Under the pieces are notes generated by a model that saw nothing but the letters and a program-made list of their open reading frames with translations, was not told the origin of the DNA and searched no databases. DNA of 64,000 nt, from contig JAYVPI010000016.1 in the NCBI GenBank assembly GCA_043757405.1, positions 143,623 through 207,622 on the forward strand. The letters are read 5' to 3'. Below are positions 36,751-39,145 of the stretch, piece by piece (position 1 is the stretch's first letter; each line of letters opens with the position of its first letter). A program made the translations under genes and the position numbers. Source of the DNA: Alphaproteobacteria bacterium (GTDB lineage: Bacteria > Pseudomonadota > Alphaproteobacteria > Rickettsiales > 21-14-0-20-44-7).

Positions 36751-37950
36751 ATGAAACGGATTTTAATTCTAGGGGCGGGGTTGATGGGCGTAACAAGCGC
36801 CTATTATCTTGCCAAAAAAGGGTATAATGTCAAGGTATTAGATGCGGCTCCGAGTGCGGGGCTATTGACCAGTTTTGCAAATGGTTCGCAGCTTTCGTAT
36901 TCCAAAACCCATCCACTTTCCGATATTGAAACACTAAAGAAGATGCCAAAACTGCTTTTTGGCAAGAATACGCCGATACATATCCATCCGCGATTGGATA
37001 TGGATTTTTTGCGCTGGGGCGGGTTGTTTTTGCGGGAGTGTATTCCGGCGCGGTCGAAGCGGAATGCGGAAGAAGTTCTGCAATTGGCGTTGAAATCGCG
37101 AGTGTCGCTGCATGCTTTGGTGCAGGAATATGAAATGAATTTCGATTATACACGGCGCGGAAAATTATATTTGTTCACGGATGAGCGTGAATTGAAGAAC
37201 GCGGCGAAGGAAATTGATGAGCATCGGCATTTGGGAATTACGCAGCGGTTGTTGGATGCGAATGCGGCGGTGGAATTGGAGCCCGCTTTGGCGGATATGC
37301 GCTCGTTGATGAAGGGGGCGATTTTTTCGGATATTGATGAATCGGGGGATGCGAAGAAGTTTACGGAAGAGCTGGCGCGGATTTGTGCAGGGCTTGGGGT
37401 GGAGTTTGAATATGGGATTCGGGTTGAGGATTTTCGTAAACAGGATGGGAAGGTGGTGGCGGCTCTGTCGGGCGAGAAGGAATTTGCAGCAGATGAGATC
37501 GTGATTTGTTTGGGGCCAGAGAGCCCGCGCTTGATGAAGAAGCTGGGGGTTTATGTGCCGATTTATCCGATGAAAGGTTATAGTATTACAGTGCCCGCGA
37601 CTAAAGATGCGCCGGAGATTAATTTGACGGATGAAGAGAAGCGCGTGGTTTATTCCAAGATCGGCGATAGGTTGCGGATTGCCGGAGTGGCGGAGTTTGC
37701 GGGTTGGGATTATACAGTGAATCGCCGGATTATGGACGGTATGATCGCAGCAGCGAAAAGCCGGTTTCCGCGCGCGGGGGATTATTCACAGATTGAGGAA
37801 TGGACGGGGTTGCGGCCAATGACGCCGTCAACTGTACCAATTATCGGGCAGTCGGATAAGTTCAGGAATTTATACTTTAACACCGGCCACGGAATGCTCG
37901 GCTGGACGCTGGCTTGCGGGAGCGCGGAGCGGTTAGCGGCACTAATCTAA
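36751..37950 (+). CDS. FAD-dependent oxidoreductase, D-amino-acid dehydrogenase-like
   Basis: The N-terminal dinucleotide fold [28 protein letters not shown] is present. The C-terminal [14 protein letters not shown] is typical of the DadA/DAO family. Confidence 0.75.
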
Positions 37951-38118
37951 TTTCCGCGCTTCTTCCGCCAGCATCACCGGGATCCCGTCTTTTATTGGAT
38001 AGGCTAGGCGGGCTGAGTCGCTGATTAGTTCGTTGGCGGTCTGATCGTAACGCAAGGGGGATTTGGTTACGGGGCAGACTAGGATTCGGAGAAGGGATTC
38101 GGGTAAGGGTTTTTGCAT
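37942..38118 (-). CDS. Trm112-family (UPF0434/YcaR-like) small protein
   Basis: Below the track cutoff. Hand translation gives [58 protein letters not shown] (58 aa), which has the LVCPxxKxPL...YPIxDGIPVML signature. The ATG overlaps the upstream stop (TAATG). Confidence 0.8.
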
Positions 38119-38615
38119 TAGTTGTGGTCCAAAAAGCGGTGGGAGACTTCTTCCAGGCCGAAGATTAATTTGTGGCTGGTGGCGGCATCGCCAACGCCGA
38201 AGTTGTGCTCGAAAACTTGCATCAATGCATCCATGTGCAATTTGATTACTTTATATCCGTTTGGCGGCAGGGCTGCGGCTGCAGCGTCGCAGAATTTATA
38301 CATAGAATTAGCAACTTCCGAAGCCAAAGGGGCACCTCCGGTGGCGGCGCGGGATTTGATGCTGAAGGCCAGCTCGGAAAGCTTTTGGTAATGGGTTTGG
38401 CTGATTAGGTTTTCTCTTAATTCGGCGAATAAGGTTTTTAGGTTGTTGTAATCGGCGGTGGTTTCGGTTTTGAAAACTTCTTGGCTTTGCTCAACGGTTT
38501 TTTCGGTGCGGTTGATGGTGGTGCTGTCAAAGGCTTGTTCAAATTTGGCGTTACCGAGTTTTTTGTTTATCAGCAGTTCCGGGTTAACTATTTTTACTTC
38601 GTTGGGATCGGACAT
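38118..38615 (-). CDS. Hpt-like four-helix protein lacking His at the canonical phospho-acceptor position
   Basis: [34 protein letters not shown] aligns with the Hpt signature xxHxLKGSxxxxGxxxLxxxCxxxE, with Phe where His is expected. It lies 2 nt downstream of a response-regulator gene. Confidence 0.45.
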
Positions 38616-38617
38616 AG

Positions 38618-39145
38618 TTATATATATTCTACAATACTTTGTTGACGACGATCAATTCCGCCAGGGATTTTTTCCGGTTCTTCCTCGCGTCTTCTGTCGG
38701 GGCCTTTGTAAGAATTAGTGATGACGAAAGAGCGCGGGTTTTCGACGATGGATTTAATCTTACTGCATAATGATTTGATGCCAAAGGGTTTTATCATATA
38801 TTCGGTGACACCGGCGTCGCGGGCGATTTCTACATCTTCTTGTTTGGCATAGCCAGTGAGCATGATGATCGGGGTGTAGCATTTGTTGGTGTTGGATAGC
38901 GCGCGCACCGTTTTGGTAAATTCCAAGCCGTTCATGCCTTTCATCCGCCAATCACAGAAAATCAGGTCGAAATCGCTTGCTGCTAGCTCTTTTAGGGCGG
39001 CGCTGCCTTCCACAACAACGATGATTTGGCCAAAGCCCATGACCTGCAAAACGTCACGCAAGAGGCGCAGCATGATAGGATCGTCCTCCAAAACAAGGAT
39101 TTTTGTGGATTTTAGAGACTCTTTTATTTTATAGTCGGCGCTCAT
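38618..39145 (-). CDS. Single-domain response regulator (receiver) with an Arg-rich C-terminal extension
   Basis: The REC motifs ILVLEDD, DLIFCDWRMKGMNG, PIIMLTGY and EYMIKPF are present. They are followed by a roughly 40-aa tail, FVITNSYKGPDRRREEEPEKIPGGIDRRQQ. Confidence 0.85.
   Translation of the reverse strand: MSADYKIKESLKSTKILVLEDDPIMLRLLRDVLQVMGFGQIIVVVEGSAALKELAASDFDLIFCDWRMKGMNGLEFTKTVRALSNTNKCYTPIIMLTGYAKQEDVEIARDAGVTEYMIKPFGIKSLCSKIKSIVENPRSFVITNSYKGPDRRREEEPEKIPGGIDRRQQSIVEYI

Follow-up and report, generated by a model that had tools for sequence, protein, structure and literature searches.

A CheY-like receiver with a Cle-like arginine-rich tail and a degenerate CheA-P1-type Hpt domain form a putative split c-di-GMP effector in Alphaproteobacteria

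The DNA analysed here, referred to below as the window, is a 64-kb stretch of contig JAYVPI010000016.1 from an alphaproteobacterial genome. Its minus strand carries a cluster of three genes (37942–39145), and the ORFs lie where the initial annotation had placed them. The first gene (38618..39145) encodes a CheY-like single-domain response regulator of 175 residues, recognised by its ORF and its match to Pfam PF00072, which ends in an arginine-rich C-terminal tail. The second gene (38118..38615) encodes a 165-residue homolog of the P1-type Hpt domain of CheA that has no phospho-accepting histidine and is called pseudo-P1 here. The third gene (37942..38118) encodes a small protein of 58 residues of the Trm112/YcaR family, which matches both Pfam PF03966 (E = 1.5e-14) and the NCBIfam YcaR model (E = 6.6e-14, under the equivalog cut-off). 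The receiver and pseudo-P1 genes are separated by a 2-nt gap (TAActATG), and the Trm112 gene overlaps the stop codon of the pseudo-P1 gene by 1 nt (TAATG), so that the ORFs and the junction letters agree with the tight coupling of the three genes described initially.

The receiver gene lies directly upstream of the pseudo-P1 gene in each of the 16 related loci for which upstream DNA is available, and in two of these the genes are fused, i.e. adjacency or fusion is obligate. At E ≤ 0.001 the pseudo-P1 family comprises 517 cluster representatives, and its 150 best representatives include 23 fused proteins with lengths of 317–362 residues. A total of 137 fused homologs were found. Residue counts given below for the fused form refer to 113 fused homologs, and those for pseudo-P1 columns refer to 156 family representatives. 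The receiver and pseudo-P1 of the window align colinearly and end to end with the fused protein P0060 (119 of 340 positions identical). For the fused form, AlphaFold2 gives a model with a pLDDT of 93.6 and a pTM of 0.89, which indicates that the predicted arrangement of the domains is fixed. The window pair thus appears to be the split form of a protein that is a single chain in many other Alphaproteobacteria and, since the two parts are fused in other bacteria, they are likely to constitute one undescribed signalling module. The carriers are mostly uncultured Alphaproteobacteria, which include Rickettsiales-labelled genomes and Roseospirillum parvum, a culturable species with the fused gene (P0252). 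The motifs of both parts are retained across hundreds of homologs, and public annotation of the family proteins reads just "response regulator" or "hypothetical protein". Searching a 5.8-billion-protein index with a profile of the diverse alignment A4 yielded only nine proteins.

The receiver domain is canonical, as had been noted at the outset. It matches PF00072 with an E-value of 1.5e-24 and 86.7 bits (cut-off 30.2), the Pfam envelope covering residues 16–130 (38756..39100, minus strand). Its top NCBIfam match is CheY, with a score under the cut-off of that model. The active-site quintet is complete and consists of the acidic pair D21/D22, the acceptor D65 (codon 38951–38953, minus strand), T97 and K119, the latter followed by P120; all are invariant in the alignment of close homologs. 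The domain also has Y116. The acceptor Asp is present in all split-form receivers, which keep D65, T97 and K119. The window receiver retains every phosphorylation residue, and classical phospho-control may therefore dominate in this lineage. The REC domain of a fused homolog superposes on CheY with an rmsd of 1.2 Å and a target TM of 0.90. The acceptor position of the fused homologs is occupied by Glu in 69 and by Asp in 44 (61% Glu), similar to CleD, which likewise has Glu at this position (E70). This substitution suggests that much of the family may work independently of phosphorylation. An arginine in helix α4, R109, is part of an ARDAG motif, and ARDxG is invariant in the fused form (113/113). 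R109 is offset by +44 residues from the acceptor, which matches the Cle proteins (+44 for CleA R111 relative to D67, and +43 for CleD R113).

The tail of the receiver (P137–R167; 38645..38737, minus strand) has the pattern PRSF-x5-YKGPDRRR-x11-DRR and was delineated by its match to the Cle motif and by a profile of the family tails. It contains the segment FVITNSYKGPDRRREEEPEKIPGGIDRRQQSIVEYI with two DRR motifs, at D150 and D165, exactly as quoted in the initial annotation, which had also pointed to a likeness to the arginine-rich tail of Caulobacter Cle proteins. This likeness agrees with both the published motif and the published peptide. The arginine-rich region (ARR) of Cle consists of tandem [Y/F]xGP[D/E][R/K]R repeats with an N-flanking Arg, a C-terminal conserved Asp (RxxD) and a conserved Arg in helix α4 of the receiver (CleA R111, CleD R113), which is required for activation; CleD carries E70 at the acceptor position (PMC5677366). 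[quoted passage not shown] The ARR binds an intercalated c-di-GMP dimer, and once Cle proteins have bound c-di-GMP (2:1, nanomolar) they associate with FliM, a protein of the flagellar switch (PMC5677366).

The first repeat of the window tail, YKGPDRR, matches the Cle motif exactly. The second, PGGIDRR, retains the Gly, Asp and both Arg residues and is missing the aromatic residue and the Pro. The N-flanking Arg is R138 in PRSF, and PRxF is found in 113/113 fused homologs. The C-flanking Asp is replaced by Ser170 in the window receiver and by Lys or Glu in close homologs. The departures in the second repeat and at Ser170 correspond to single changes in the CleD-derived peptide that cost 10- to 25-fold in affinity (25-fold for Y163A and 10-fold for D172A; PMC7382256). 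GPDRRR is nearly invariant in the fused form, with the Gly and the first two Arg present in 113/113 and the Asp in 93/113, and the second [DE]RR is found in 103–112 of 113. The published CleD peptide scores 31.5 bits against the family tail profile, while the maximum of 2000 shuffles is 11.5. Among the loci closest to the window, the tail is conserved in L001, L002 and L004 and is out of frame in L003. The receiver tail therefore closely resembles the c-di-GMP-binding ARR of Cle at the level of sequence, and it may bind c-di-GMP in the same way.

The likeness to Cle extends to the whole architecture, in which a CheY-like receiver with the α4 Arg is followed by PRx[FW]-x5-[YF]xGPDRRR and then by a second G-x-[DE/R][RK]R. 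Both groups are predominantly alphaproteobacterial. Unlike in Cle, the second repeat of the module has no aromatic residue and Pro, and the C-flanking Asp is not conserved. Furthermore, Cle proteins have been described as consisting of a single domain and as targeting the flagellar switch, whereas the module receiver is always paired with, or fused to, a pseudo-P1 bundle, and the Cle papers do not mention the term "Hpt".

Pseudo-P1 is an Hpt homolog, in agreement with the first description of the 165-residue protein as Hpt-like. Taken alone, the window protein scores 13.7 bits against Pfam Hpt (PF01627), under the cut-off of 24.6, and no Pfam family other than Hpt is recurrent in its relatives (20 of 44 members at E ≤ 1, best E = 4.5e-8). 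The profile of these 44 sequences matches the P1 domains of E. coli and Salmonella CheA with E-values of 1.1e-6 to 1.4e-6, and the alignment sets the helix B motif on the CheA segment AHSIKGGAGTFGF, with F84 opposite His48. A low-confidence model of the window protein (pLDDT 60) gives CheA P1 structures as the top Foldseek matches (1i5n, 3kyi and 8c5v; target-normalised TM 0.74–0.77). In the model of the fused form, the pseudo-P1 region consists of five helices with pLDDT values above 90. The five-helix bundle is shared with CheA P1, as are a near-identical helix B (A-x-S-I-K-x-x-A-G-T-F-G-[FY]) and a Lys at position His+3. Unlike CheA P1, which is followed by domains P2–P5, pseudo-P1 is found outside any kinase, either standing alone or behind a receiver.

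The core of the domain is a helix B–turn–helix C motif (A83–D110; 38286..38369, minus strand), which was identified in the CheA alignment and is invariant in the seven closest homologs. Its first helix carries F84 (codon 38364–38366, minus strand) at the position of CheA His48, and K87 and Y106 are equivalent to Lys51 and Glu70, respectively. The Phe that the initial annotation had placed at the expected phospho-accepting position, upstream of FCDAA, is thus where it was said to be. The substitution is characteristic of the family. Position 84 is F in 96, L in 43, Y in 4 and H in only 2 of the 156 representatives, and its equivalent in the 113 fused homologs is L in 75, Y in 13, M in 10, F in 6 and H in 2. 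The window copy is therefore typical and not an outlier, and a sequencing error is ruled out, as four independent assemblies contain an identical protein and most members of the family have Phe or Leu at this position. The Glu70-equivalent column contains Y (68), H (31) or F (22) in most representatives. The Lys at His+3 (K87) is kept in 144/156, and the Gly at His+4 of CheA is mostly replaced by Ser. Both the phospho-accepting His and its Glu partner are missing, which makes this protein an Hpt homolog and not a functional member of the Hpt family. By its sequence it is a true Hpt domain of the CheA-P1 type that appears to be catalytically dead. The most conserved part of the bundle is the part with which Hpt domains dock receivers. 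A further conserved segment is located at the N-terminus (residues 7–30; 38526..38597, minus strand; conserved I9, P12, L16, K19 and G21). Its counterpart in the fused form is a linker region made of a β-strand and short helices, for which the model contains a strand (195–200) and a helix (205–210) of high pLDDT.

Hpt domains that have lost their histidine are known from plants. AHP6 is a pseudo-HPt in which the His is replaced by Asn, and it inhibits the cytokinin phosphorelay by competition. Similar to pseudo-P1, it has the Hpt fold minus the phospho-accepting His and is still under selection, presumably for binding a receiver or kinase. It differs in being eukaryotic and of unrelated lineage, in being neither fused to nor in an operon with a receiver, and in having no second-messenger input; the likeness would be one of functional analogy. 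In a literature search on bacterial pseudo-Hpt or P1-like proteins, only plant papers of the AHP6 type and a description of HmrX were found. HmrX (CC_1220) of Caulobacter crescentus is a standalone P1-like putative Hpt protein with a predicted fold nearest to CheA P1. Genetic evidence links it to c-di-GMP-dependent control of the motile-to-sessile transition; it keeps H81 at the CheA His position, and the hybrid kinase HmrA was proposed as the source of the phosphate that it passes on (PMC11481889). Compared by description only, HmrX and pseudo-P1 are both small, standalone P1-like proteins of Alphaproteobacteria, but HmrX retains the His, and an adjacent receiver of the ARR type has not been reported for it.

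The gene neighbourhood of the module varies between lineages. The window locus is accompanied by cysS, other loci by gapR and metK or by a convergent kinase gene, and those of another clade by purM, ppk and ppx (identified solely by their N-terminal sequences). No conserved kinase, GGDEF, chemotaxis or flagellar partner was found near the related loci. A single locus, L015, adjoins fliF/fliG-like genes, as judged by eye from N-terminal sequence. The variable gene context of the related loci indicates no downstream partner.

We consider it moderately probable that the pair is a split, Cle-like c-di-GMP effector in which pseudo-P1 serves as the docking or output subunit. According to this proposal, the receiver gene and the 165-residue gene would encode two halves of one signalling protein. 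One half would be a CheY-like receiver whose ARR tail is of the kind that binds a c-di-GMP dimer in Cle. The other would be a five-helix, CheA-P1-type Hpt domain in which Phe84 and Tyr106 take the places of His48 and Glu70, and which therefore would carry no phosphoryl group at the canonical site. The two proteins would form a stable heterodimer, in which the β-linker of the fused form is rebuilt from a C-terminal receiver strand and an N-terminal pseudo-P1 strand. The bundle would then employ its old, highly conserved Hpt surface for protein–protein contacts, and binding of c-di-GMP to the tail would alter the way in which a downstream partner encounters the receiver and the bundle. In the split lineage, phosphorylation of D65 possibly acts too, alongside c-di-GMP. 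The dead Hpt domain would thus be an output or adaptor subunit, and the module would descend from a CheA-P1/CheY phosphotransfer pair. What we infer in this mechanism is the binding of c-di-GMP, heterodimer formation, the regulatory direction and the target.

A bolder version of the split-effector proposal is conceivable, though doubtful. The CheA-P1/CheY pair might have been converted wholesale, with c-di-GMP as its input and the dead P1 as a c-di-GMP-gated decoy that intercepts chemotaxis or a phosphorelay. If so, the dead P1 would still recognise the partners of P1 domains, such as the CheA kinase core or other receivers. The module would then resemble AHP6, but in bacteria and under the control of a ligand, and would add a new class of output to those of Cle-type effectors.

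Rather than being an output, pseudo-P1 could act on its own receiver, by docking over D65 and blocking its phosphorylation or dephosphorylation, i.e. as an AHP6-like decoy directed against its own partner. The strong conservation of the receiver-docking part of the bundle is compatible with such a role, as are the intact D65, T97 and K119 of the split-form receivers and the tight translational coupling of the two genes. We nevertheless regard it as quite unlikely, because the Glu acceptor of most fused homologs leaves no phosphorylation to regulate, and because permanent fusion to an inhibitor would be odd unless something, c-di-GMP for example, frees it, in which case the idea merges with the split-effector proposal. 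A catalytic role also appears improbable: in the conservation tallies, no Asp/Gln/Asn pair like those of CheZ, CheX or Spo0E is conserved, and a phosphatase of any of these kinds is rejected on this ground and by the absence of a phosphorylatable Asp from most fused homologs.

Of similarly low probability is the explanation that the tail is a basic linker or some other interaction peptide, and that the receiver is an ordinary phospho-dependent one that works with an adaptor. The degenerate second repeat and the missing C-flanking Asp would fit such a tail. A motif check of the 64-kb window, together with Pfam searches of selected ORFs, revealed no gene for a GGDEF, EAL or HD-GYP protein, but the window is a small part of the genome. 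Against this explanation, conservation in the tail falls precisely on the c-di-GMP contacts of the CleD peptide (D, R and R in the first motif; G and RR in the second), and the N-flanking Arg and the α4 Arg are likewise among the conserved contact positions. In addition, the match between the tail profile and the CleD peptide is far above that of every shuffled sequence.

The phospho-accepting site could have shifted rather than disappeared, as the initial annotation had suggested for a His nine residues upstream of F84 in THYQK. This residue, H75, is present in the window protein; its column is occupied by A, D, L, I, E and other residues and contains His in just 9/156 representatives, so H75 is rejected as a relocated site. 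The only well-conserved His of the family is H127 in helix D (codon 38235..38237, minus strand), which is found in 136/156 representatives and 108/113 fused homologs (about 87–96%) and, by conservation, appears to be the only candidate for an alternative phospho-site. It is located next to residues of the helix D core, within a conserved R/K-K-H-I-D sequence, and is thus probably surface-accessible, and all split-form receivers hold an Asp with which it could exchange a phosphoryl group. A real Asp–His relay step via H127 nevertheless seems slightly less probable than either of the two preceding explanations. The equivalent of H127 is Tyr in P0003, a homolog with 65% identity in which all other motifs are intact, and the His is kept in 64 of the 69 fused homologs with a Glu acceptor, where the attached receiver can deliver no phosphoryl group. 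Moreover, helix D of a P1-type bundle is diagonal to helix B and faces away from the receiver-docking surface, as is established for these structures.

It is very improbable that the three genes form one unit in which the receiver and the pseudo-Hpt control a methyltransferase through the Trm112-family activator: the TAATG overlap and the same-strand, downstream Trm112 gene of L001–L003, the closest relatives, would favour it, but the Trm112 gene is on the opposite strand in L004 (41% identity, same flanking genes), downstream of a DAO-family oxidoreductase gene, it was not found beside the module in L005–L021 or at the fused-gene loci L022–L025, and the trio is accompanied by no methyltransferase gene. 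The three-gene arrangement is therefore not conserved, and synteny rejects Trm112 as a component of the system. The coupling is lineage-specific and probably incidental, with Trm112 a passenger outside the module that is co-transcribed with the pair only because of the local gene order.

To our knowledge, no receivers other than the Cle proteins are known so far to be switched by c-di-GMP via a short linear peptide. In a large group of Alphaproteobacteria, most of them uncultured, a Cle-like receiver is paired with or fused to a degenerate Hpt domain, and in this clade a match to "Hpt" in an annotation does not imply a phosphorelay. If the split-effector mechanism is true, it would give bacterial pseudo-Hpt domains a concrete role and would provide an example of a phosphotransfer pair rewired to a nucleotide second messenger. 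The two proteins would also be open to direct tests, for which F84H, H127A and R152A/R167A are obvious point mutants.

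The receiver gene (38618–39145, 175 aa), the middle gene (38118–38615, 165 aa) and a Trm112-type gene (37942–38118, 58 aa) lie on the minus strand at 37942–39145, coupled as the initial annotation described: the middle ORF starts 2 nt past the receiver stop, and the start of the 58-aa ORF lies within a TAATG overlap. The receiver gene and the divergent cysS have start codons only 33 nt apart (39146–39178), so both promoters must sit within the adjoining coding regions; a consensus promoter scan of the 39146–39178 region gave no convincing candidate. A DAO-family oxidoreductase gene converges with the 58-aa gene, with a 9-nt overlap at the end of the latter. 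The receiver matches Pfam Response_reg (E 1.5e-24; top NCBIfam match, CheY) and the 58-aa protein matches Trm112p (E 1.5e-14; top NCBIfam match, YcaR). The middle protein, found identical in four independent sequencing-run assemblies, gives a sub-threshold Hpt match only (E 0.079, 13.7 bits vs a cut-off of 24.6), which spans almost the whole model (positions 6–81 of 84).

The middle protein is an Hpt homolog that lacks the functional feature by which the Hpt family is defined. A first search returned six relatives only (49–65% identity), in which the core segment and most of the remaining helix B–C motif, F84 included, are invariant and H75 varies. An exhaustive profile search then covered 1.84 billion cluster representatives and yielded 517 relatives at E ≤ 0.001, of which 133 reach E ≤ 1e-10. 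Against all PDB sequences, a 44-sequence family profile hit the P1 domain of CheA from E. coli and Salmonella (E 1.1e-6 to 1.4e-6), and Hpt was the sole recurrent family in single-member Pfam scans (20 of 44 members, best E 4.5e-8). The AlphaFold2 model of the middle protein, built from a shallow alignment, is weak (pLDDT 60); its five helices find CheA P1 domains as best Foldseek matches and recur at pLDDT >90 when a fused homolog is modelled from a deep alignment. The profile, Pfam, Foldseek and model evidence bears out the suspected Hpt likeness and identifies the protein as a CheA-P1-type Hpt (here pseudo-P1), in which, judging from the alignment, the His/Glu catalytic pair is replaced by an aromatic or hydrophobic pair.

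HMMER matches the core helix segment to CheA AHSIKGGAGTFGFSVL, so that F84 pairs with His48, K87 with Lys51, position 103 with His67 and Y106 with Glu70. The Phe reported earlier at the site of the phospho-accepting His is typical of the family: among 156 aligned family sequences, position 84 is F in 96, L in 43, Y in 4 and H in only 2, and K87 is retained in 144. The canonical phospho-site has been lost family-wide. The proposal that it had shifted to H75 fails, with His in only 9 of the 156 sequences in that column. A shift to H127 is a rival reading; His occupies that column in 136 of the 156. The nearest analogy to a partner with a lost phospho-site is AHP6, a plant pseudo-HPt; HmrX, the nearest characterised alphaproteobacterial P1-like protein, retains the His (PMC11481889) that pseudo-P1 has lost.

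The receiver and pseudo-P1 are obligately paired or fused. Three long contigs of close relatives keep the window's order of cysS, then the divergent receiver, pseudo-P1 and Trm112 genes. Upstream DNA is available for 16 of 21 related loci drawn from genomic and metagenomic sequence, and the receiver is directly upstream in 14 and fused in frame in 2. Fused proteins (317–362 aa, pseudo-P1 C-terminal) make up 23 of the best 150 family representatives, and searching with P0060, itself one of these, gave 137 at E ≤ 1e-20. Their annotations go no further than 'response regulator' (in Rickettsiales-labelled MAGs and Roseospirillum parvum) or CheY-like, with Pfam Hpt recorded for just three of the 137. 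Joined end to end, the window pair aligns colinearly with P0060 (119/340 residues identical), its split point falling on a short β-linker. The AlphaFold2 model of P0060, made from 113 sequences (pLDDT 93.6, pTM 0.89), consists of a CheY-like receiver domain (Foldseek: CheY, rmsd 1.2 Å), two short strands directly after helix α5, an Arg-rich coil of lower confidence and, past it, three strands, short helices and a five-helix bundle. The C-terminal SIVEYI of the window receiver and the N-terminal VKIVNP of pseudo-P1 correspond to two of these linker strands, and the model suggests that they may complement each other in trans.

Only in the window and the three nearest relatives is the Trm112 gene translationally coupled to the module; in L004, an uncultured Rickettsiales MAG locus with 41% identity and unchanged flanking genes, it is encoded on the other strand, after the oxidoreductase gene, and no Trm112 gene adjoins the module in any other related locus examined, up to L025. 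The best explanation is that this small gene rides on the end of any adjoining transcript that it faces.

The arginine-rich region (ARR) of the Caulobacter Cle proteins is defined by a tandem [Y/F]xGP[D/E][R/K]R with a conserved Arg on one flank and a conserved Asp on the other, and also needs an Arg in receiver helix α4 (PMC5677366). An NMR study reduced the contacts to DRR and [R/K]RxxD in the CleD peptide, SKPREWVEAVAYVGPDRRRFNSADYKGPRKRKADAS, whose affinity drops 25-fold with Y163A and 10-fold with D172A (PMC7382256). The window tail, NPRSFVITNSYKGPDRRREEEPEKIPGGIDRRQQS, is in register with the ARR over the flanking PR, the entire first repeat and the second-repeat G-x-D-R-R, and R109 (ARDAG) lies at acceptor +44 residues, the offset found in CleA. 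Every one of 113 fused homologs carries PRxF and ARDxG. GPDRRR is almost as constant, its G and first two Arg occurring in all 113 and its D in 93, and 103–112 have the second [DE]RR; split-form receivers have the same tail pattern. The family tail profile scores 31.5 bits against the CleD peptide, and none of 2000 composition-matched shuffles exceeded 11.5. At the sequence level the tail thus resembles a proven c-di-GMP-binding peptide, as the initial annotation had suggested. Unlike the Cle ARR, its second repeat contains neither the aromatic residue nor the Pro, and Ser170 stands where the C-flanking Asp is expected. An Arg-rich tail without nucleotide binding is a rival reading; given these two deviations and the affinity losses in the peptide, c-di-GMP binding is plausible and its strength uncertain. 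With predicted c-di-GMP binding, the receiver would work like Cle receivers, and its probable place is close to the Cle family, with two motif features only partly matched.

Glu occupies the phospho-acceptor position in 69 of the 113 fused homologs, as it does in CleD; every split-form receiver, the window's included, keeps the acceptor Asp. Another rival would make pseudo-P1 a shield or inhibitor of receiver phosphorylation. The sole kinase seen within the window, a HAMP-HisKA sensor kinase extending past its end, is a possible phosphodonor for the receiver; it is encoded at 60398–64000 (plus strand) with a TonB-dependent receptor and a YfiR/HmsC-like periplasmic protein (DUF4154). In the close relative L003 (5900–6003), the called receiver gene stops early and the tail (DYRGPDRRRRADPSLIPNGVDRRKNS) is read in a different frame past a CCCC run, its stop overlapping the ATG of the next gene; the probable cause is an assembly frameshift, not a real truncation.

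Elsewhere in the window, a HigB-like toxin (PF05015, E 2.4e-16) and HTH_3 antitoxin pair (40544–41196, plus) lies between cysS and an HMGL-like (citramalate/isopropylmalate synthase-type) gene. It looks like a recent insertion because none of the syntenic loci L001–L004 has a comparable pair at that position; L001 and L004 each hold a different single gene. Two further toxin–antitoxin-like pairs are on the minus strand: a HepT-like RNase with an MNT nucleotidyltransferase (10326–10930), and a PIN-domain protein preceded by a 74-aa partner without Pfam match (25281–25895). A 75–79-aa ORF without Pfam match separates the DAO oxidoreductase gene from that for aldehyde dehydrogenase in the window (36482–36709, minus), L001 (10838–11068), L003 (8392–8619) and L004 (8054–8293); the window and L004 copies, the two compared, share DSSYLRQNQ/DTSYLRQNQ. 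ORFs of 202–766 aa at 44848–47148, 42750–43757 and 35616–36449 (minus) and at 47301–48389 and 48393–49001 (plus) have no Pfam match at E ≤ 0.001 and could encode lineage-specific secreted or host-interaction proteins; the 335-aa one is Ala/Gly-rich with apparent hydrophobic stretches. GC skew over 1–64000 is positive in all 4-kb bins (+0.05 to +0.33) and its cumulative curve rises monotonically, unusually strong for genes of mixed orientation.

In a more distant metagenomic clade (L007–L011, L014, L021) the module sits inside a conserved gene block, its genes recognised from N-terminal sequences only: on the upstream side are a purM-like gene, two ORFs of ~360–390 aa and one of ~220 aa that resembles the DnaA-related HdaA, and downstream follow an MFS-like gene, a gene for a SixA-like phosphohistidine phosphatase, ppk and ppx. 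A SixA-like gene, so recognised, next to a dead Hpt is a curious pairing.

The searchable literature holds no description of a receiver–ARR plus pseudo-P1 module. We infer that the two window proteins would associate as a heterodimer that corresponds to the fused protein, with c-di-GMP bound on the tail and α4 face of the receiver. The conserved and exposed F84/K87/Y106 face of the bundle may be a protein-contact surface inherited from P1, and the bundle would act as output or adaptor. By analogy with P1 and Cle binding partners, candidate targets are a CheA kinase core, another receiver and the flagellar switch; L015 is the sole locus beside fliF/fliG-like genes, judged by eye from N-terminal sequences.
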